Source: a phage. From it: a DNA stretch of 64,000 nt. The notes beneath the pieces are model-generated. The model was given only the letters and a program-made list of their open reading frames with translations, ran no database searches and was not told where the DNA came from. Of this stretch, positions 5,737-62,395 are shown in pieces; position 1 is the stretch's first letter, and each line of letters begins with the position of its first letter. Where the stretch lies: the sequence record PV805633.1; one strand, written 5' to 3'. A program made the translations under genes and the position numbers.

Positions 5737-6185
5737 GTGGCTCAAGACGCTAAGGAATATAAAATGCAACTGTTAACCGCCCGTGAATACCTGAAAGTAG
5801 ATATCGCTAACAACTATGGCTTAGACAAAAAGACATGGGATGAGCGTATTAGCTGGTTCGATGAGAACGAAGCTAACCTGCTCAATCTGGTAGATGAAGC
5901 TGAAGAATCTGCACTGTTCTACGCAGGTGTAAACGCTTGGAAAGATATGAAAGCTGGTAAGCCTATCGGTTATGCCGTAGCTCTGGATGCTACATCATCT
6001 GGCTTGCAGTTACTGGCTTGCTTGACTGGTGATCGTTCTGCTGCTGAATTGTGTAATGTAGTTAACTACATGGGCGAGAATGGTAAGCCATTACGACGTG
6101 ATGCTTATACAGTTATCTATCACAAGATGCTGGACATCCTTGGTGAATCATCCCGTATTAAACGTAGTGATACTAAGCAGGCCGT
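5737..6185 (+). CDS. phage RNA polymerase II large subunit, exon 1 (motif A)
   Basis: LDATSSGLQLLACLTGD matches T7 RNAP motif A; frame ends 2 codons into the insertion; RIKRSDTKQAV is the first half of motif B. Confidence 0.7.
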
Positions 6186-6991
6186 TAACCTATAAGTCAT
6201 GGCGGCCTTTAAACCGGGTGAACTCATGGAACATCCCTAGTGGACAATCATGAGCCAAGTTGGTAACGTAGAAAGCTCAATAAGGAGCATTCTATGTCAG
6301 AATTCAAAACGTGCAGTCGATGTAAAGAATTACTTCCTATCGAAGTATTCCCAGAGACTAAAAAAGCAATCACAGGACTCAAGACTAATTACGAGAATCG
6401 TTGCAGACCTTGCAAGGCTGCTGCTGCTCGTGAATGGCGTAAAAATAATCCCGGTTACACTGGAACTGGGATTCTTAAGGCAATACCGGAAGAGCATCGT
6501 AATGGTATTCAGCAGTCTCACTTAGACTGAGAGATGCAAAGAGCAGATGTAAAAAGCTCGGTAAGCCTATGCCTGATTGCACAGTAGAGTACTTATTTGA
6601 AATCCTTAAATCACAGGAATTCAAATGTGCTTTAACTGGTGCAACCTTAGTAATTGAGTCGGGACATCCCTTGTGTCTATCATTAGACCAGATAGAGCCA
6701 AGCAAGGGATATAGTATTGATAATGTTCAATGGTTAGCTTGGTGTGTAAACCGAGCAAAGGGTGACCTTTCTACCAATGACTTTATTGATATGTGTGATG
6801 CTGTTTTGAATAACCAAAAGGTGCAGAGACTATCGAAAAGCAGCGTAAGCTGAACTTAGTAGAGTAGGCCCAAGTGGGTCGAAGCGCCCGGCTAGACTAA
6901 TAGTCTAGATGATATAGTCCGAACTCACTGGTAACAGTGAGATGCAGGTAAAGCTGCTGGGGAAGATTAACGACCTTCCTTGAACATAATG
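6186..6991 (+). mobile_element. putative group I intron carrying an HNH homing endonuclease
   Basis: Splits motif B; exon 1 ends in T, intron ends in G; GCGGCC guide sequence about 16 nt in pairs with the exon end GGCCGT with U-G at the splice site; P7-like AGACTA/TAGTCC and S-like GATGATATAGTCCG; internal ORF has its own AAGGAG SD. Confidence 0.6.
6294..6853 (+). CDS. HNH-family homing endonuclease, disrupted by a 1-nt frame change near 6500-6510
   Basis: N-terminal CSRCK...CRPCK zinc ribbon (ORF 6294..6530); C-terminal LRLRDAKSRCKKLGKP...CALTG...SLDQIEP..GYSIDNVQW..CVNRAKG in another frame (open from 6503, ORF 6569..6853). Confidence 0.55.
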
Positions 6992-7787
6992 TATGACTGC
7001 ATTCTATGGTTCAGAAGCCAAGCCTAAAGAAGTATTCGGTGAAGGTATTCGTCTCAAGACTTTTGAGAATGTAATGGAAACAGTTGCTAGTGGACCTTGG
7101 GCACTGAACAAGTTCTTACTGCAATGTGGTGACCCGGATGCTAACCGTTACGTATGGATACTGCCTGACAACTTCCATGCTGTCATTAAGGTCATGGTTC
7201 CAGAAGTACAGACTGTTAACTTCTTAGGTAAGCCATTCGACATCACTCGTATGGTTCAGGGTACTGAAGATAAGACTCGTATGCTCTCTGCTAACATCAC
7301 CCACTCTATTGATGGAATGGTGGTACGTGAGATGCTACGTCGTTGTAACTTCAACATGAACCAAGTGAACTATGTTAAGCCCCTCTGTGAAGGAACCAGT
7401 GAGTATATGCTGGGTACTAGCGAGAACTACGACATGGTTAGTCAACTGTGGCATAACTATGAGAAATCAGGATTCCTGTCTACCCGTATCTTTGATTATC
7501 TGGATTCTGACTCAATTAAACTGGTTGATACAGATGTAATCATGGCTATGCTTAATACCATGCCTAAGAAACCATTCCCTGTAATGACCGTACATGACTG
7601 CTTCCGTTGCCACCCTAACTACGGTAATGACTTGCGTCGTCAGTACAATCAGATTCTGTCTGACATTGCTAAGAGTGATCTACTGGGCTTCATCCTGTCT
7701 CAGGTACTGAGACAAGAGTTCTCTGCTGGTAAGCTGGATGACAGCCTCTGGCAGGACATCCTTGAAACGGATTATGCATTAAGTTAA
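6992..7787 (+). CDS. phage RNA polymerase II large subunit, exon 2 (motifs B and C)
   Basis: MTAFYGSEAKPK matches T7 MTLAYGSKEFG; VHDCF matches T7 motif C IHDSFG; exon 1 + exon 2 = about 414 aa, close to N4 gp16. Confidence 0.7.
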
Positions 7788-8973: not shown

Positions 8974-9010
8974 GACCTCCCTATTGAAGGGAGGTCTTTT
9001 TTTTTTTTTG
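8974..9010 (+). terminator. rho-independent terminator
   Basis: GACCTCCC-loop-GGGAGGTC followed by a T run of more than 10. Confidence 0.75.
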
Positions 9011-46119: not shown

Positions 46120-48074
46120 TTAAGGCATTTTCACATACCCAGGTATGCCTTGGGCTTGGCGTATATACCGTATAGCACGCTCCTGGTTTTCTTTCTCAGC
46201 CTCCCGATCTACGGAAGCCTGTGATCGAAAGTTACGAGGAGCCAGGTTTTGCGGATCAGCCTGTACCTGCCCCTGAGCATTTTTAAGCATTGCAGCAGCT
46301 CTAGCAACAGCCTCCTGTCGTGCAGGTAACAGTGCAGTAAGTGCAGTCTGACCTGTAGCAATCTTATTTGGGTGTTTGACAGTGCAGCTACGGCAGCATC
46401 ATATGCAGTCTGTGCTGCCTGAATATTCTGCATAGCCTGAGCACGACCAAGGTTACGTACACTTGCTTCAAGGGGTTCACCACGTTTTAACCCCTCAATC
46501 ATTTGGTCTACCTGACGGTCATTAAGTCGCAAGCCATTACCGGCTTCTGGGGTTTGCCCTATAGTTAGATAATCAATAAGACGTCCTGTATTACTTTCCG
46601 GTACGTTAGTCATTGCACGTTGAACAACAACACCTGCCATAGCAGGAGATACATTAGCACGCTGAGCAATATCATTGATACGAGCCACAACCCATTGTTT
46701 ATCTGCCCCCTTAAAGTCACCCTCTAGTAATCTGTTAGCAACTTCCCCAACAGTAGAAGTGTCATTTAAGGCAGGTAAATAATCAGGAGCAATACTTCCA
46801 GCATTGTCCTCCATAGAACGAGTACCAATCATACCGGTAGCCAGAGTAGATACTGCCTGATTACCTTGGTTATTCTGAACCATAGCTAGTGGGTCAGCCC
46901 CTACTTCAGCTTGGGCAATAACAGGTTTCATCTCTTCCCAAGTCATATCCTTATAAGCACCTGGAGTAGAGTTAGGCAGAGCAGCCCAAGTATCTTTAAG
47001 GTTACCGTTCTTACGGGCCTCGAAGATAGCCCTACCAATCTTATCCTGGTTCTCAGGAGAAAGAGGCTGGCTTTGCCAATCTGGACCAAGAACTTTAGGA
47101 GCGAAGTCTAGCAGAGTAGCTTGGTTAATCTGGAATGCACCAACAGGAGAAGCACCCTGCTTCGACTTCATACTATCCTGATGCTTAATTACATCACCAA
47201 TACTCATTTGAGTAATAGGAGTAGATGTACCAGCAAACTGGTAAGTAACATCATAAGGAGAACCCTGACGAGTACCAGCAGTACCTGGGGCAGACGTAGC
47301 ACCAACATTGTTACCGTAAACACCCGGATATGCTCGTGCAAGCATTTCCTGCAAACGTGCCTGTGCAACCGGAGACAGATGCTTACTATAAGATTCTGCC
47401 AGAATACGGGCATCGTCAGCATTCTCAGCACCACGAGTAATCAGTGCCATTACCCCCGTAGCAGCCTGACTATCAGCATCATTACGTTGAGCAACACCTA
47501 AATCAAAACGATTCTGTGCCTGATTAATAGCCTGACCACCCTGACCTTGAAGACGACTCAGCATGTCCAATTGCTGGTCAGCAGGGAGTGCAGACAATGC
47601 ATCACGGGTCTGACTTAATGCAGCATTAATACGGTTCTGGTCACCCGACTGATAAGCCTCAGACAGCAAACGAATAGCAGGGGAAGCATTATCTAATGCA
47701 GTGTTAGTATCCCGTAAACGATCAAAGTTATAAGTATTGTAGTCATTGGTTCCCTGCTGACCTTGTTGAGTCAACAGTGTACCTGCTCGCTCATCAAGGT
47801 TTTGGAGGGTACGCTGGTTTATCAATGAAGGGTCAACCCCCTGAAACAGTGCACCAGATGCCAAAGCATTGCGGTACTCAGTAGGGTCTTGGTACTGCAT
47901 AGCATTCATCATGACGGCATTGCCAGCCTCCTGCTTGGCAGCGTTCTGGAAATTACCCAGTGCATCACTTAAGCCGGAGGTGGCGTTACCAATCATGCTA
48001 CCAAATGTGCGAATGCTGTCACCAACTCCAGAGAAGTTAGGTGCATCAACATTTCTCCACGTTATCTGAGCCAT
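46120..48074 (-). CDS. virion structural protein (N4 gp51/52-like), with apparent 1-nt frame change near 46366-46372
   Basis: ORF track 46209..48074 ends in Leu-rich out-of-frame sequence; alternative frame gives a plausible Ala/Gln-rich tail ending at 46120 just before the terminator. Confidence 0.5.
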
Positions 48075-55647: not shown

Positions 55648-57918
55648 TTACAGGTTCATGCCAAGAGCCGATGCTGGGTCTTGGCTAGGGTCATAGTATT
55701 GGGAACTAAGTGAATAAGACGGGTCTTGCTGAGCAGCTAAATCCCGTTCTGGTATAGAGTTCACGTTAGTCAAAGTATTATATCCAACAGCTGCAGATAT
55801 GTTGGGGGTAGTTTCCCCTTCTTTAATAGGTGTTGTCAATGCCTTAGTTATTTGAAGGTTCTGGTTTCCTTGGGATTGTGCTTTTTGTTTTTCCATATCA
55901 CGAGCATGTTTAGTACCAGATTCCTGTTCCAGATAATCCAGGTCTTTAAGGTCACCACTAGAAGCAGCCTCTTTAGCTTTAGCCATATTGAGTGCAATCT
56001 TACTTTGCAACTCTTCATTCTCAAGCTGTGCTTTCTGAATTGCCAATTGCTTAAGCTGTTCTTCCATAGGGTCTGGTTGTGGTTGCCAAGTACGTAACTC
56101 ATGAGCCAGGTCAGGCATACGTTTAAGCTCTGCAATCTTAGCTACGAGGGATAATGTAATAGTCTGGTCAACCGTATTACCCAATGTTTGAACCATGAAG
56201 CTCAAGTCCTGGGATTTCTGGTTATCAATTTCAGCAGTGTTAATATCAACCTCAATGTCGAAGTTACCTTTAAGATCTTCACGGTTAATCTCTACATACT
56301 GCTCGTTAGTAATACGTACTACTTCCTTCTCAGATAAGAACACAGCATTCATTGCACAAATCTTAGTACCAATGTCTGCCATACCCTTAGCTAATCGACG
56401 AAGGATTGCCATCTCACGCTTGGATGCTGCATCAAGTGCACCACGAATACCAGCAGCCACATCTCCGTATGCTGAACCAGTTACACCACCGGAGAATGCT
56501 TTAACACCAGTTAATGATTCAGCTTCCTGGTTTTGCATCTGGGTCATTATTATTGCCGACTGAGGTAACTCAGGGAACTTATGTTCCATAATGGCTTGAC
56601 TAGGATTACCCTGCATTGGGTTGTATTCATAGTCTTGCCCATCGTCATAACGACGTCGGTTTAGTGTATCCAACATCCCTTTAGGATAACCACGTTGACC
56701 ATTTGCACTTCGACCTAACAGGTCAATCATCCCACGCATAGTTGCACCAAGAATTGCTTGGTTATCCCCCAACAGTTCAGCATCAGCTTCACCAAAGAGT
56801 TCACGTTTACGAGGCATGTAAGGAACAACTACTAAAGGTAATTTGCCGTCAGGGAATGGGTTCCTCTCCATACGAATAAGGGTAGAACCAATCCAGGTAG
56901 CAACAATAGGTTCCAGAGAACCATCATCATTGATGTCGTAGAATCCCCAGTATTCATAAGCAACAACTTTCTTACGTAGTGCATCCTTAAACTGAAAGTC
57001 ACTAGGGGTTTTACTTTCATGGTCTGGGTCAGTCATAGGACTGGAGCTTTCCCAGTCAATCTTATCTAAGTTGTGATATATGTCCTTGTTCTTCATGAGG
57101 TCTGCTTTGCATGTCTCAAACGAGATAACTGCATACAGAGCCTTATCCAAATCACCATTACAGCTTGGGTCAATAACTACGTTATTAGGGTTAAGCATTT
57201 CAACGGTAGGTCTGTTAACTAGTGCCTTCTCTACTTCTACTTCAGTAACTCCCGTTTGAATTGCATAGGTAGCTTCCCCGGTTTCATTGAAGTAGTTAAC
57301 AGCTTCCTTAATATCTTCCGGCATTGTTTCATCATACTCACGAGGATTCTCTGCCTGAAGCTGTAAAGCTTGTTGAAGAACATCAGCTTGTTCCTGGTTC
57401 TCAATTGGATACAACTGGAATACTGGTGTTTCTGTTTTAATCTTAACAGTCTTACGTTCCCAACCAATACGAGCAATACCAGTGCCATCATCTACGACAC
57501 TATGTACATAATCATCTACCAGTTTCACTTTATTAAGCTGAGTACGGAATTGGTAGTTAAGAACTAATTCATTCTGGCGTGCAGCTAACTCATCTTCAAA
57601 AGTAACAGGGGTTACTTTAAAGAGCTTATTAGACGAGAGAAAAGGCTCAGACAATGGAGCATATCGCCATTCTGCCTGACGGCGAACCAGTCTGGGTTGG
57701 ACTTGGGAACGTCCCTTAACCTTTGGGGGTTTAGCTTTACCTTTAACTTCCATCAGGTCATTCCACTCACGAATCTGTGCCATAATTGCATCGTGAGCAG
57801 GTTTAGCTGATTCCAAATCACCCTTCAGTAATTGGATACTTGGTTCCTTCTTCCAGTCCGTTAACTTCTCTGATTGAGCCGGGTCTGGTAAAGGCTTAAA
57901 AGTGTCTTGGTGTTCCAT
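55648..57918 (-). CDS. portal protein (N4 gp59-like)
   Basis: 756 aa; position upstream of MCP. Confidence 0.55.
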
Positions 57919-57926
57919 AGTTAATC

Positions 57927-58427
57927 CTATTCAAAAAGTTTACGGTCAGCCTGAATTTGCTTACCCAACTCAATTAGTTGGTTGTCACGGAGTCTAACAG
58001 TTGCCCGGAGTTCTTCAACCAAACGTCTGCCTTCTTCAAGACTGTTGTCGAGTCTGGCTGCATGGCTTGCAAGACTTCTGCACTCAAGGGTTCCGGCTTC
58101 GGCTTGACGTTTATATACCGATGCTCGTCTTTCAGACTGTTGCATCCGGCTGTCGTAATCACTGCTAACGCGAGCAAGCTCGCTTGCGTAATTACTCTCA
58201 GCCGTCTGCAACCGGGAAGTAAGTAACCCGACTTCATAACTATGGTTTCTTTGGAGAGCATTGTATTTGTCCTGTAGTTTTTGTGTTGCCTTCTGGTCTT
58301 CAACCTTTTGAGCATCCCATCTCTTTTGGACAGTAGACTGTCCATTGGAATTGCCCCAAAAGTAAATGGTGGCCCCGAGGACCACCACCAGAAGATAAGG
58401 CCAACCTTTAGAGATTAGCATCTTCAT
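57927..58427 (-). CDS. i-spanin (Rz-like)
   Basis: N-terminal [17 protein letters not shown] then coiled-coil periplasmic domain; start set at internal Met. Confidence 0.55.
57974..58237 (-). CDS. o-spanin (Rz1-like) lipoprotein embedded in the i-spanin gene
   Basis: Alternate frame inside i-spanin; signal peptide with lipobox-like TAGC; Pro-rich mature region. Confidence 0.5.
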   Translation of the reverse strand: MKSGYLLPGCRRLRVITQASLLALAVITTAGCNSLKDEHRYINVKPKPEPLSAEVLQAMQPDSTTVLKKADVWLKNSGQLLDSVTTN

Positions 58428-59042
58428 TACATGCCTCCAGTGGTACATTACCGATTCGGTTAGCTACCCAACCATACGTAAAGTCTGGCATGTTCAATGA
58501 GGTGTAGTGGTTCAATTGTTTAGCATCAAGCAACTTAATCATTACCTGACATGCTGCAACTTTGCCTCGTTTTTTCTGTAATGCTTTATATGCATTAACA
58601 GTACCTGCACCGACTTTACCATCAACTTGTATTTTAGGGTAGTCTTTGCCATCACGGGACATTTCATTAAGGGATTGCTGCAACCACTTAGCTGGTCTGG
58701 TTACACCGGTATTAACACCAGCATCAACCAGTTTGTGTGTTACAGCAGGAGATATATCAGCGAAGGCTACGAAGTTAGGCTTAATAACGTAGTCATCAAT
58801 GTATATCTCAGCAGCCATTTCTTTCGATAAACCCTTCATGGAACCATCCCAACCATACTCAGTAGCCAGAACTTCTTTGTGAGACTTAGCTACTGATTGG
58901 GTAATACCATGATTGGTTTCCCCACCTGGGTCACGAGGATTGTTTACGTACCCCCTTCCATATAGAACACTGCCCCCAGAATAGCAGCGATAACTCCTCC
59001 CACCGCACCCCCTTTTGCAGCAAGTTTCTGTTTAGCTTTCAT
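58408..59042 (-). CDS. SAR-endolysin, GH108-like N-acetylmuramidase with PG_binding_3-like C-terminus; apparent 1-nt frame change at a G5 run (plus strand C5 at about 58951-58955)
   Basis: ATG-initiated MKAKQKLAAKGGAVGGVIAAILGAVFYMEGG stops 4 codons after the run; downstream frame continues GYVNNPRDPGGETNHGIT...DGKVGAGTVNAYKAL. Confidence 0.55.
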
Positions 59043-59292
59043 GGGAATCTTCCTTTGGATGGAAACGTATTAGTCTGCCCACAATGTTTAAGGCAAACAG
59101 TGCGATTGTAATACTGGAACCATGTGGAATATCTTCAAGGATGTGACGTGGTAGTCCTGTTAGCATTGGTTGGATAATATCTACTGTAGAAAACAGAATT
59201 AATCCAAATGCACTAATCTGAACAGATGCCCACTTCCAGGACTTCTTCCAGTTAGGAACTAGCCCTATTTTTCTTTTTAGCTTGCGAACCAT
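59032..59292 (-). CDS. holin-like two-TM membrane protein
   Basis: ORF track 59032..59358, start set at internal Met; two hydrophobic helices; stop overlaps endolysin start. Confidence 0.4.
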   Translation of the reverse strand: MVRKLKRKIGLVPNWKKSWKWASVQISAFGLILFSTVDIIQPMLTGLPRHILEDIPHGSSITIALFALNIVGRLIRFHPKEDSHES

Positions 59293-59609
59293 GCGAATAT
59301 CTCCCGTCTTGCAGCAGCCAATACACCAATAATTGCACCTGCCCCAGCCCATACCCACTTACCAAAAATCCCAGCACCTGCAACCTTATGTTTGATGGTG
59401 ATGAACTCTTCAATGGTAGGTTCGGACTTAGTGATGCTCTCCTCTACCCGTTTAAGTCGGGTACTGAGGTCACCCATAGACTCGCTTAGCTTTTTAATAG
59501 ACTCTTCCATTTTCTCCCTATCCCTCGATTCACGAGTTTGGTTTTCGAAAATGTTTCTCAGTCTCTCTTCAAGTCTGGCTAGAGTTACGTTATCTGGTTC
59601 ATTTCCCAT
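59277..59609 (-). CDS. coiled-coil protein with C-terminal TM (lysis accessory candidate)
   Basis: ORF track; C-terminal GAGIFGKWVWAGAGAIIGVLAAA. Confidence 0.4.
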   Translation of the reverse strand: MGNEPDNVTLARLEERLRNIFENQTRESRDREKMEESIKKLSESMGDLSTRLKRVEESITKSEPTIEEFITIKHKVAGAGIFGKWVWAGAGAIIGVLAAARREIFAWFAS

Positions 59610-59854
59610 AGGGATTTTCTCAGGTTAGTTAAGTCGTAATTGACTAAAACAGTCTACCTAATGACTTGTTTTTGGTACAACAAAACCCACCCCCGCAACC
59701 TAGTTGGGCTGGTTAAAGCCTGAAATATGGAACAGCAGTCACCAAAACAACAAAGACCATACTTAGGATTGAGACAACCATATGGGTGGCTATATGCGTA
59801 TAATATTTTTAGGGAGCAAGTATACACCTGCTCCCCGGAGCTATCTCAGAGCCA

Positions 59855-62395
59855 TCAGAACACAAAATCCAGTTGCATAAGCTGCTTCAACTGAATCTGC
59901 ACGGTACTATCCTGGGTTACTTCCGGAACAGTTAAGCCAGAAACACCGATTGCAAAGTCCGCAATGAACCCGGTAGTAGGATTCCTTACTATATCCGCCC
60001 CAGTACCCCCAGAACCTGTACTTGCAAACTGAGTCTGCTTAGAACCAAAAGCATTACCTGTACCTGCAATAACTAGTTGCCATACACCCCTGCCGAGCGT
60101 ACCTGGAATACTCAAGCTACCTGAACCAGCAGCACGGAATATCTTGGTATTCTCATAGAACATACACTCTTGCAACGTGCAGGTACTTCTCTGCCCGGTA
60201 CTCAGTACCTGATTACCCTGGAAGCTAAAGTTAGTCTGGTCATTCAGAACGAAGTCGCAGAGCATGGATGCTTGCAACTGCACGTTCATATCCAGAGTGT
60301 TGGCATGTGCAATCAGGGACTTAGGAATGCCTCCAATACGATAACCGGGGGAGCGGTAGTTCAGGTTCAGCGTGTTCAGTTGCTTAATACTGTTACCCAC
60401 CAGCTTAACGGTTTGCCCACGATATACTTCAGTTGCGTTGGTGCCGGCGTTAATCATGACACCTTCTGCTTTATTGCTGGCGGTTAAGCACTTAAGCACT
60501 ACAGTATTATGACTTACGTCAATATCCTGGTACACCTGGTATGCGCTATCGCCACCTCCAGTTGATATAGCTACCCCATCAAAAGCTCTAAGCTCGCAAT
60601 AGTTGTTGTGAATCTTAACAAAGGGGTTCGGATACGTCGCTGCCGTAGCCTCCCCACCCCCACCTACATCGATGCTGCGGGTGTACCTGCCGCCCGCAAG
60701 CGGACCGGTACTGGTACTATCCGGAATATCCCTGGAGCGCACATAGTTGTTAGAGATTATGAGGTTATATGGTTCATAGTTTGGGTGCCAGCCTGAACCA
60801 CATTTAGCGTAGATACCGACTACGCCATGCTCCAGGCAGAAGTTATCAGTGATAATTAACTGACCCCCACCGTGAAAATCGATGCATTTTCTACGGCAGT
60901 TAAAAACGAAATTGCGGCTGGCTGTTATGTTGCGTATTCTCCTGTTTCTACCATGTCCGATGCCATAGCCAGGGTCAAAGGATGCATTCAAATCATCAGC
61001 ACCGTTCGGGTGTCCGATGTTGCTAATTACATTATCAAAGTAGCCCATTTTGTAGCCACACAGAACACCTATACCGTTTGAGTAACAGTTGGTTATTGTG
61101 TTCTTTGAAATAATAATACCTTCTGGAACATCGCTTTCATTTGGGTAGTCCGCCATGTCCGGTGAGGCAATATTTCTTATGCCAATCCCAACACCTGCAT
61201 AGTTAAAGCCAGATATCTTACACCTTTCAACGGTTATATTTTTACAAGCTCTTTGAATCTTAACACCGCAACTCCAGCTGCCAATATACCCGCCAAGAAA
61301 AGTACCCCAACTGCTTTGGTAGCTTCCTGTTGGATTACCCGCACTGTCATAGGATGGGAATTGTCCGGACACCTCATTAAATGCCCCTGTGTTATAACTA
61401 GAGGTATCAACTGAGTTATTTGGTCCCAACACATTAACTCCACCGGCTGTATTGTAGCCAAATCGAGATTCTCCTTTCTCTGCATAACCAGTAGGCGCAT
61501 CTATAGCAGGGAACTTGTTAGGGCCACGCACTGTTACAGACACAGTCACGTTCCGGCAATTTACAAGGGCAAGCCCATCCAGTCCGTGCGTATTCACAAT
61601 TATAGTGCCGTTGGAGATACGAATACCTTCCTTATTTACCAGTGCCAGACACGGACTGTAGTTACGTGTACCGTCGCTGAAGTCAGGCTCAGTAGGGTAC
61701 GTAGAAGCCAGTGCAGGATTTTTCGAACTAAATACGTCTTCCCGCCTAAATCAATATCTCCAGTGGTGGCGTCGAAACATGCCTGCACTGCCAACGTATC
61801 GTCGGCAACGCCATCACCAACCGCCCCCCCATCCACGTGGATCGCCATTATCACGCCAGCGAGCCATTTGTAGTTCGGGGTATTTTGTTGCACCTTCAGG
61901 GTCTGAAATCTGTCCTCGTAGTACCGCATCCCCAACACTCACCCAAGCACCCAGACCAACGCCACCAGAAGTTTCGGGGGTTGAATCAGCAGGAACCTCT
62001 TTAGGTAATGCTCCATCCCAACGGTACTTACCATCAGTGAATACAACCAGTTCATTCTTAGTATTAACTGTTACACCAGTAGCAAATGAACCAGGTAGGG
62101 TTACATACTCTTCACGAGCAACAGCCAGTGCACCTAAGTCCACACTACCAGCAGAATGAACTAATACTCCAGCAGGGCTAAGACTTACAGCAGTAACCCC
62201 TGAACCAATATCAGCAGGTAAGGAATAAGCACGCTGTGACGCTTTGTCATAAATGACTTTGTAACCAGTAAGCAGAGCACCCACTGAGAAGTAAACAACT
62301 TCCGATTGTTTAACCCCAAAGTGACGGGCTACTGCTTGTTTGTTGGTTAATATTCCGGTTGATCCTCTTCCACCTTGTGAGAATAATTCGTTCAT
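59855..62395 (-). CDS. tail spike with pectate-lyase-like beta-helix; apparently one gene split into three ORFs by two frame changes
   Basis: ORFs 61814..62395, 61636..61938 and 59855..61597 overlap in different frames; junctions near the T5 run at about 61719-61723 and in the 61815-61860 region; 59855 ORF frame stays open upstream of its GTG start. Confidence 0.45.

Follow-up and report, generated by a model that had tools for sequence, protein, structure and literature searches.

The lysis cassette of a G7C-like phage in record PV805633.1: roles of its genes by orthology with N4, and a broken endolysin frame

Introduction

The 64,000-nucleotide stretch of record PV805633.1 analysed here (the window) covers the initial 64 kb of the genome of a G7C-like, N4-like coliphage (Gamaleyavirus, Schitoviridae). 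Between its tail spike gene (59855-62395) and its portal gene (55648-57918), five genes lie on the minus strand with tight overlaps, which an initial annotation had read as a complete lysis cassette. This locus raises two questions, namely, which of its two small membrane proteins would set the time of lysis, and what is to be made of an endolysin whose reading frame is broken in the sequence as given. The cassette is already known, since it is annotated in G7C and in dozens of related phages, and a genetic dissection of the orthologous N4 cassette is available (Awuah et al., 10.1101/2025.11.12.688109). As developed below, it is very likely that the region represents the lysis cassette among the late genes of a G7C-like phage and that the frameshift in its endolysin gene is an error of sequencing or assembly.

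Gene order and relatives of the cassette

Collinearity of the window with the genome of vB_EcoP_G7C starts at base 1, and positions 57900-59660 are 97.8% identical to G7C at the nucleotide level; in a nucleotide search, at least 80% of these positions was covered by 59 phage records. Read on the minus strand, the genes are orthologues of the N4 genes in the order gp63-gp62-gp61-gp60/gp60a, with amino acid identities to N4 of 60% for gp63, 54% for gp62, 67% for gp61 and 56% for gp60. Gene order, coordinates, strand and placement between tail spike and portal were all found in the list of open reading frames as they had initially been proposed. Gene order, orthology, domains, hydrophobic segments, lipobox, embedding and the indel were observed directly, transmembrane (TM) segments being called by Kyte-Doolittle windows and the lipobox by the PROSITE pattern.

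The window and the N4 cassette share the gene order and the place between tail genes and portal, as well as matching protein lengths (110, 86-87, 208-211 and 166-167 aa, with a mature o-spanin of 56 aa), the Gly/Ala SAR domain, the EGGY motif, the gp63 Receiver/TMD region and the embedded +1-frame o-spanin. However, the N-terminal half of gp63 and the N-termini of the spanins have diverged, the alternative start Met17 of N4 gp63 is a Leu in the window, the upstream neighbour of the cassette is the tail spike in the window and gp64/gp65 in N4, and the endolysin frame of the window is broken. In G7C (NC_015933), gp63, holin gp62, endolysin gp61, Rz-like gp60 and an embedded gp60' are annotated in the same arrangement, and the proteins are 94-99% identical to those of the window, whereas G7C carries a different tail spike module upstream of the cassette, and has GGAGGG and an intact 211-aa endolysin where the window is frameshifted.

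A scan for promoters and terminators over 57700-60000 gave nothing relevant to the cassette that exceeded shuffled expectation, and CCCCGCCGAAGCGGGG, the hairpin repeat flanking the tail-fibre genes of G7C, is absent from the window. A T13 run was also considered as the N4-type terminal-repeat pyrimidine tract and was rejected, since its position, 8997-9009, is downstream of gp17 and outside the terminal repeat.

Predicted pinholin and accessory regulator

The first gene (59277..59609, minus strand) encodes a protein of 110 aa, recognized as the gp63 orthologue by its identity to N4 gp63 and its match to phrog_5211 (3e-49). The two proteins have 66 of 110 residues in common, with near-identity over residues 62-110, and T65 and T71, two positions altered in rapid-lysis mutants of N4, are both conserved. 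The layout comprises a long N-terminal cytoplasmic helix, the 'Receiver' region and a Gly/Ala-rich C-terminal TMD. In an AF2 single-sequence model, helices extend over residues 10-61, 66-78 and 83-109 (pLDDT >90 at residues 11-50), and the Kyte-Doolittle hydrophobic segment covers residues 80-101. The initial description of a coiled-coil protein with a C-terminal TM segment is accurate as regards the helices and the TM segment, but it misses the role of the protein, as N4 gp63 is a pinholin, able to complement the S21 pinholin defect and not the lambda S105 holin defect, which shows that it makes small lethal holes letting out SAR endolysins but not soluble ones (10.1101/2025.11.12.688109). 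By orthology, the pinholin would be this helical gp63-type protein with a C-terminal TM, and not the two-TM protein encoded next to it. In many records and in UniRef, gp63-type proteins are mislabelled as 'tail length tape-measure protein' or 'hypothetical'.

The second gene (59032..59292, minus strand; 86 aa) shares 16 nt with the end of gp63 and 11 nt with the beginning of gp61, and its ATG at 59292 is preceded by a GGGAG Shine-Dalgarno sequence. It is the gp62 orthologue according to its Pfam domain DUF7940 (PF25612; 1.8e-14, 54.5 bits against a cutoff of 27), its match to phrog_1356 'holin' (1e-29) and its identity to N4 gp62, and it has two hydrophobic segments by Kyte-Doolittle, at about residues 21-47 and 58-77. 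These segments and the phrog_1356 match agree with the two-TM holin-like protein that had been annotated; nevertheless, N4 gp62 is a non-essential lysis regulator whose holin-like activity is late, weak and gradual (10.1101/2025.11.12.688109), and the N4 data suggest an accessory regulator rather than a holin for the window as well.

The converse assignment, with the gp62 orthologue as the true lysis-timing holin and the helical C-terminal-TM protein as an accessory factor or antiholin, would be in line with the phrog_1356 match and with the label 'holin' that this type of protein bears in G7C, Bas96 and other relatives, and N4 gp62 is in fact lethal after CCCP and slowly releases SAR and soluble endolysins alike (10.1101/2025.11.12.688109). 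It is nonetheless unlikely, given that in N4 the deletion of gp62 left plasmid-driven lysis unchanged and the gp62-less phage was viable, that gp63 alone complemented the pinholin defect, that rapid-lysis mutations fell in gp63 and gp61 (in gp62, 0 of >60 isolates), and that a gp63 deletion was recovered only alongside compensating mutations in the SAR domain (10.1101/2025.11.12.688109). Moreover, the TMD and Receiver region of gp63 are almost identical between the window and N4. For annotation, this amounts to a correction of roles, by which the gp63-type protein would be the pinholin and the protein labelled 'holin' the accessory regulator.

The same logic is found in phage 21 (S21/R21), in which a small-hole holin depolarises the membrane and a membrane-tethered SAR endolysin is thereby freed. 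There is, however, no sequence relationship: gp63 combines one C-terminal TMD with a long cytoplasmic helix, whereas S21 has two TMDs, the first of which (TMD1) is itself SAR-like, and R21 is an enzyme of the T4-lysozyme type, not of GH108.

Endolysin

The endolysin gene spans 58408-59042 on the minus strand, with an N-terminal Gly/Ala-rich TM segment followed by GH108 and PG_binding_3 domains. From the ATG at 59042, only 32 codons can be read before a stop, the sequence past the catalytic Glu being Gly-Gly-Thr-stop. The endolysin is split into two ORFs, of 32 and 143 aa, because of a 1-nt deletion in a G5 run (58951..58955, minus strand), which was located by alignment to relatives two codons past the catalytic Glu. 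The 5' fragment (58944..59042, minus strand) holds the SAR domain and, in its EGGY motif, the catalytic Glu29, while the 3' part (58408..58950, minus strand; residues 32-211 after repair), with the rest of GH108 and PG_binding_3, is recovered by slipping back one base (-1). An alternative start for the catalytic domain was rejected, as no ATG, GTG or TTG precedes Met69 in the frame of residues 32-211, so that the catalytic Glu cannot be included in this way.

The SAR segment, residues 11-28 (GGAVGGVIAAILGAVFYM), has Gly or Ala at 10 of 18 positions and a KD17 peak of 2.02, with K2, K4, K6 and K10 before it and E29 after it. The N-terminus aligns to the SAR domain of N4 gp61, including a Gly which matches N4 G12, the site of the rapid-lysis mutation G12E (10.1101/2025.11.12.688109). 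Once repaired, the 211-aa endolysin matches PF05838 (Glyco_hydro_108) over residues 24-113 at 1.1e-19 (71.1 bits; cutoff, 21.2), PF09374 at 6.5e-8, phrog_315 endolysin at 1e-41 and PDB 6v3z, the Sen1395 muramidase, at 3.9e-27; its identity is 67% to N4 gp61 and 99.5% to the endolysin of KKP 3715. E29 is aligned with the Glu of KEGGY in Sen1395. The sole statement on the GH108 catalytic residue that a literature search returned calls E14 of TtsA the catalytic residue, and we infer that E29 is its equivalent. TtsA and Sen1395 (PDB 6v40, 6v3z) share the GH108 and PG_binding_3 domains with the endolysin, but are bacterial secretion-associated proteins serving toxin export and not lysis, and their solved chains have no counterpart of the SAR segment. 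As for N4 gp61, it is a SAR endolysin shown to be tethered to the membrane in a Sec-dependent manner, to leak out slowly even without a holin and to be freed when a pinholin triggers, and it complements the corresponding phage 21 defect (10.1101/2025.11.12.688109); its muramidase activity is credited to Stojkovic & Rothman-Denes 2007, as cited in 10.1101/2025.11.12.688109.

The SAR GH108 endolysin of the initial annotation was hence well identified by its Gly/Ala-rich, basic-flanked N-terminal segment, by the adjoining muralytic GH108 and PG_binding_3 domains and by its orthology to N4 gp61, but it does not lie in a single intact frame here. For the same reason, although all five genes are present, the cassette is complete only after the repair of one base, because the lysin is not one ORF in the sequence as given.

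Spanins

The last gene (57927..58427, minus strand; the longest ORF extends to 58448) overlaps the endolysin stop by 20 nt at its start, and its ATG at 58427 has a GGAGG Shine-Dalgarno sequence 6 nt before it. It encodes an i-spanin of 166 aa, the gp60 orthologue, as identified by a match to the Rz-like spanins of phrog_6197 (3.5e-77) and by its identity to N4 gp60, the only Pfam match being a sub-threshold one to DUF2514. An N-terminal TMD (hydrophobic segment at residues 7-27 by Kyte-Doolittle) is followed by a helical periplasmic domain with one Cys (C116). The exact 166-aa sequence was found on an ENA metagenome contig.

Wholly within this gene (57927-58427), in the +1 frame (offset 1), lies the ORF of an 87-aa precursor (57974..58237, minus strand) which is identified as the putative o-spanin, the gp60a orthologue, from its lipobox, its embedding and its homology to N4 gp60a; searches of Pfam and PHROGs gave no match for it. 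The lipobox is of the PROSITE PS51257 type, with Cys32 as the residue predicted to be lipidated and K2 near the N-terminus, and the mature form would have 56 aa, as does N4 gp60a, being Pro-rich and containing KPKPEP. G7C, Bas96, N4 and the ENA contig all retain the ORF with its lipobox, and in Bas96 an o-spanin is annotated at the homologous place. Nucleotide identity between the window and N4 is 84% in the overlap with the mature o-spanin and 46% in the 5' stretch of the i-spanin gene that lies outside the overlap. Coordinates, +1 offset, lipobox pattern and conservation thus concur with the i-spanin and fully embedded o-spanin in another frame that had been annotated. In N4, gp60 and gp60a are functional spanins which complement lambda RzRz1 amber mutants (10.1101/2025.11.12.688109).

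In lambda Rz/Rz1, likewise, a type II protein of the inner membrane has a helical periplasmic domain, and a small, Pro-rich outer-membrane lipoprotein is fully embedded in its gene in the +1 frame, but the spanins of the window belong to a different sequence family (phrog_6197). In addition, the only Cys of the mature o-spanin is the one predicted to be lipidated, and the i-spanin contains just one; therefore, the disulfide pattern must differ from that known for lambda.

Proposed course of lysis

Activities, membrane topology and timing are proposed here by orthology with N4. The endolysin would be exported by Sec and held inactive in the inner membrane by its weakly hydrophobic, Gly/Ala-rich SAR domain, the catalytic Glu of the tethered enzyme directly adjoining the membrane. 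The gp63 pinholin would build up and trigger, its small holes depolarising the membrane, after which the SAR domain would exit the bilayer and the GH108 N-acetylmuramidase would degrade the peptidoglycan. The gp60 i-spanin in the inner membrane and the gp60a o-spanin, as an outer-membrane lipoprotein, would then disrupt the outer membrane, and gp62, with its two TM segments and slow holin-like activity, would have an accessory, regulatory part. The pinholin-type timing that the presence of a SAR lysin had initially suggested is right by orthology, because the orthologous N4 cassette has been experimentally shown to work in this manner. In N4, the inhibition of gp63 has also been proposed as the basis of lysis inhibition (10.1101/2025.11.12.688109). 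With identities of 54-67% to N4, G7C-like phages may depart from it in functional detail, for instance in lysis inhibition or in what gp62 does.

Origin of the frameshift

At the site of the deletion, the window reads GAAGGGGG-TAC (5 G), KKP 3715, the closest relative, has GAAGGGGGGTAC, with G6 and an intact frame, G7C and Bas96 have GAAGGAGGGTAC and the ENA contig L009 has GAAGGGGGTTAT. The endolysin frame is uninterrupted in about 55 close relatives, mostly with GGAGGG, that is, not a run, and the site is crossed in one tblastn piece by all 60 listed relatives except U1G. The latter reads GAAGGGG-TTAT and its frame is also broken, its G-run being independently one base short in a different sequence background (92.7% nucleotide identity to the window here). 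U1G is a plaque-forming phage which was sequenced by MinION only and assembled with Canu, and its lesion is explained by this platform. Three further single-base homopolymer indels, at 46367-46369, 61719-61723 and 61824-61830 and absent from the relatives compared, break gp51 and the tail spike gene of the window, and downstream of every indel the original frame is still conserved. Since relatives are intact, KKP 3715 has G6, U1G was sequenced by nanopore only, similar indels occur elsewhere in the window and frames are conserved downstream, the endolysin frameshift is read as an artefact, most probably a homopolymer-length error of sequencing or assembly, and the true run would probably be G6, as in KKP 3715, rather than G5.

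The four frame-breaking indels are confined to the final 18 kb of the window, the preceding 46 kb or so having yielded none, a clustering which is uneven for random errors and counts against their being errors. An exact-pattern scan of IMG/VR for an identical frameshifted contig gave no match. Among the cassette and neighbouring products, exact matches exist only for the i-spanin and gp63, on an ENA contig (95.8% nucleotide identity) and a short Logan contig (97.6%), and the ENA contig carrying the exact i-spanin has an intact endolysin.

Were the frameshift real, the inactivated endolysin, together with the truncation of gp51 and the disruption of the tail spike, would describe a defective or decaying genome, originating, for example, from a metagenome or a bacterial assembly. 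The sequence as given does hold four frame-breaking indels in late genes, neither the truncated lysin nor the portal product has an exact match on record, and N4-size contigs in bacterial assemblies have been noted (10.1101/2025.11.12.688109). However, N4-like phages are strictly lytic and are not known to enter any dormant state that would allow genes to decay; each of the four lesions alters the length of a short homopolymer by a single base, and there are no substitutions, stop mutations or larger deletions among them; the other genes compared with G7C, about 60, are intact; and U1G, viable and sequenced by nanopore only, has the same type of lesion at the same G-run. Genome decay is accordingly improbable, somewhat more so than the exchange of roles between gp62 and gp63.

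It is far less probable still that the short G-run after the SAR domain in the window and U1G is a real hypermutable or recoding tract through which endolysin production would be reduced or switched and a free SAR peptide of 32 aa made, with a possible contribution to the lysis delay of N4-like phages. Scarcely credible, finally, is a site of ribosomal -1 frameshifting, transcriptional slippage or reversible run length which tunes full-length endolysin against the free peptide, perhaps in connection with lysis inhibition: although the window and U1G each lack one G at the same position, immediately past the SAR domain, with a stop codon two codons past the shortened run, a programmed frameshift was rejected in view of the uninterrupted frames of the close relatives and the lack of a canonical X XXY YYZ slippery heptamer at the site, the U1G lesion is accounted for by its platform, and comparable lesions occur in unrelated genes of the window. 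Known transcriptional-slippage tracts are, moreover, far longer than G5.

With the frameshift regarded as a homopolymer-length error, the other apparent split genes or pseudogenes in the late region of the window (gp51 and the tail spike) likewise call for caution in their interpretation, and those who annotate phage genomes or mine them for endolysins should beware of the homopolymer indels that split this gene in the window and in U1G. In the RefSeq record of U1G, such an indel divides the endolysin into two 'hypothetical proteins'.

Gene content and organization of the lysis cassette

In a megablast search of 50,697 phage records, region 57900-59660 gave 93 matches, the best being Escherichia phage vB_EcoP_G7C (97.8% identity over the full length) and the next best other Gamaleyavirus (N4-like, Schitoviridae) coliphages. 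Whole-genome blastn places the window in collinear alignment with G7C (94-97% identity), starting at base 1 and continuing to about 61.1 kb of G7C, and it thus constitutes the left 64 kb in the genome of a G7C-like phage. The cassette lies on the minus strand and starts with the orthologue of N4 gp63 (59609-59277, 110 aa), followed by the gp62 orthologue (59292-59032, 86 aa from a conserved ATG preceded by GGGAG; longest ORF 108 aa from GTG), the lysin or gp61 orthologue (59042-58408) and the i-spanin (58427-57927, 166 aa from the ATG after GGAGG; longest ORF 173 aa), within whose gene the o-spanin is embedded in the +1 frame (58237-57974, 87 aa; longest ORF 123 aa). Consecutive genes overlap by 16, 11 and 20 nt. 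Upstream, 62395-59855 aligns over its full length to a tail spike protein, and downstream the portal gene, 98% identical to G7C gp59, starts 8 nt past the spanin stop; the ORF list, the sequence and these neighbour alignments thus agree with the coordinates, gene order and flanks of the initial annotation. Its description of the cassette as complete is true only once the lysin frame has been mended by one base, a defect which had been overlooked.

The cassette itself is already known, since all five genes, embedded spanin included, are annotated in the GenBank and RefSeq records of G7C, the o-spanin is also annotated in Bas96 and Mimir124, and the mechanism has been supplied by work on N4. As a side observation, UniRef and a number of GenBank records (ST4, F22, phi G17, IME11 and others) list the pinholin orthologue (59277-59609, minus strand) as 'tail length tape-measure protein', which is a propagated misannotation.

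Features of the encoded proteins

The lysin, once repaired, matches Glyco_hydro_108 (1.1e-19) and PG_binding_3 (6.5e-8), as well as endolysin in PHROGs (1e-41), while the two-TM gp62 orthologue matches DUF7940 (1.8e-14) and holin phrog_1356 (1e-30), the i-spanin matches Rz-like spanin (3.5e-77) and the gp63 orthologue falls in an unnamed family (phrog_5211, 3e-49). Hydrophobic segments were called by Kyte-Doolittle windows: one C-terminal segment in the gp63 orthologue (80-101), two in the gp62 orthologue and an N-terminal one in both the i-spanin and the lysin, the latter being Gly/Ala-rich (core GGAVGGVIAAILGAVFYM, Gly or Ala at 10/18), with four Lys before it and Glu29 after it. AlphaFold, run in single-sequence mode on the 110-aa protein, predicts a long helix with confidence (10-61, pLDDT >90 at residues 11-50), then a short one (66-78) and, at low confidence, a C-terminal one (83-109), in agreement with a helical or coiled-coil protein that has a C-terminal TM.

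The embedded ORF matches a PROSITE-type lipobox pattern with Cys32, leaving a mature part of 56 residues. It is clearly homologous to the embedded ORF of N4, and both the +1-frame ORF and its lipobox are kept in N4, G7C, Bas96 and a metagenome contig from ENA. Moreover, window and N4 share 46% nucleotide identity in the i-spanin gene ahead of the overlap but 84% over the mature o-spanin coding part, an increase expected under dual coding; this conservation indicates that the ORF is not there by mere chance.

Proposed lysis mechanism, by orthology with N4

Window and N4 proteins are 60% (gp63), 54% (gp62), 67% (gp61) and 56% (gp60) identical. In a 2025-26 preprint on N4, E. coli with the cloned gp60-63 cassette is reported to lyse in about 25 min; gp61 complements soluble-endolysin and SAR-endolysin defects and produces slow lysis without holin, and is therefore a SAR endolysin, while gp63 complements an S21 pinholin defect, not lambda S105, and kills on triggering, and is therefore a pinholin (10.1101/2025.11.12.688109). 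Since gp62 is dispensable and its holin-like activity late and gradual, it has been considered a lysis regulator, and gp60/gp60a complement lambda Rz/Rz1 (10.1101/2025.11.12.688109). The positions of the N4 rapid-lysis mutants, in the gp63 'Receiver' region (e.g. T65I, T71A) and the gp61 SAR domain (G12E) (10.1101/2025.11.12.688109), are all conserved in the window (T65, T71 and the Gly that corresponds to N4 G12). By this orthology, the GH108 muramidase would be held membrane-tethered and inactive until the gp63 pinholin depolarised the membrane; the released muramidase would then degrade peptidoglycan and the spanin complex would, last, disrupt the outer membrane. The initial annotation is borne out as a whole, its deduction of a pinholin from the signal-anchor lysin included; its holin-like label for the second gene functionally fits the first.

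The frameshift in the endolysin gene

Read from its ATG, the lysin ends at a stop after MKAKQKLAAKGGAVGGVIAAILGAVFYMEGGT; the rest of the protein, from YVNNPRDPGGETNHGITQ... up to the C-terminus, lies in a different frame, which is entered via a one-base slip back (-1) and has no start codon ahead of Met69. One base is absent in the alignment with G7C and Bas96 (GAAGGAGGGTAC against GAAGG-GGGTAC). The closest relative at the protein level, KKP 3715 (99.5%), reads GAAGGGGGGTAC in an intact 636-nt gene, with G6 against the G5 of the window (58951-58955), and the ENA contig reads GAAGGGGGTTAT, also with the frame intact. The break falls two codons past the Glu in EGGY, a conserved motif, and alignment pairs this residue with the Glu of KEGGY in Sen1395, a GH108 muramidase of solved structure; E14 is the catalytic residue according to the TtsA paper, and E29 of the lysin may be its equivalent.

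In addition, comparison of all G7C proteins and one tail spike protein with the window revealed three further single-base homopolymer indels, which disrupt late genes. The orthologue of gp51, a virion structural gene (46209-48074, minus strand), carries a 1-nt deletion at 46367-46369 (ACCCA-AATAAG vs ACCCAGAATAAG in G7C and PD205) and ends prematurely at 46209 (621 aa vs 654), with the original frame conserved as far as the usual stop; a homopolymer error is the probable cause. In the tail spike gene (59855-62395, minus strand) one G is in excess at a G7 run (61824-61830) and one A is missing from an A5 run (61719-61723) some 105 nt away, which splits the gene into three ORFs (61814-62395, 61636-61938 and 59855-61597) with stops between the indels; once repaired it reads ...RGWGAVGDGVADDT... 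and ...YLVRKNPALASTYP... Past every one of the four indels the original-frame sequence remains conserved. Breaks in endolysin, tail spike and virion protein would keep a strictly lytic phage from propagating; for this reason we take all four indels to be errors of sequencing or assembly, and that in the endolysin is very probably so, with the caveat that all four lie within the last 18 kb and, in the G7C protein comparison, none in the preceding ~46 kb.

By tblastn, the repaired lysin aligns across the site without interruption in all of the 60 phage records listed but U1G (NC_070872.1 / MZ394712.1; 60460-61094), whose RefSeq record annotates it as two 'hypothetical proteins' of 32 and 143 aa, a split identical to that in the window. 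Identity between U1G and the window is no more than 92.7% in this region, and the local sequence differs (GAAGGGG-TTAT vs intact GAAGGGGGTTAT), so its lesion arose independently, by loss of one base from the same G-run. Such recurrence in two genomes could be taken for real recoding or a hypervariable site, a reading which we consider highly improbable; MinION-only sequencing with Canu assembly is a classic setting for homopolymer undercalls. U1G, a plaque-forming lytic phage, was sequenced and assembled in just this way (PMC10754912).

Tail spike module and RNAP2 gene

As a module, the tail spike differs from G7C gp63.1, which it matches only over the N-terminal ~174 aa (68%). Its receptor-binding part resembles that of the Ackermannviridae Salmonella phage P46FS4 tail spike (65% amino acid identity) and tail-fibre regions of Enterobacter cloacae phages (83-88% nucleotide identity), a likeness which points to a horizontal swap of the receptor-binding module. 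Those Enterobacter records, being annotated as many small ORFs, probably carry indel errors too. The 245-bp intergenic region between tail spike and cassette (59610-59854) contains neither the hairpin repeat that flanks the G7C tail-fibre genes (CCCCGCCGAAGCGGGG) nor any sigma-70-like promoter that could be found; a different hairpin, GGGAGCA...TGCTCCC, stands immediately past the tail spike stop.

All five HNH endonuclease genes of G7C (gp2.1, ST15.1, gp24.1, gp41.1 and gp47.1) have no counterpart in the whole window, and the match of the gp41 orthologue is limited to residues 1-85 of 156. The RNAP2 (gp16) orthologue (5764-7787, plus strand) is interrupted, with residues 1-156 at 5764-6228 and 142-405 at 6993-7784, about 765 bp apart. 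Unlike G7C, where ST15.1 lies upstream of gp16, the insertion (about 6229-6992) is within the gene; its two small ORFs (6294-6530 and 6569-6853) resemble an HNH-type homing endonuclease, possibly frameshifted, and it could represent an intron or reflect splitting of the gene by such an endonuclease.
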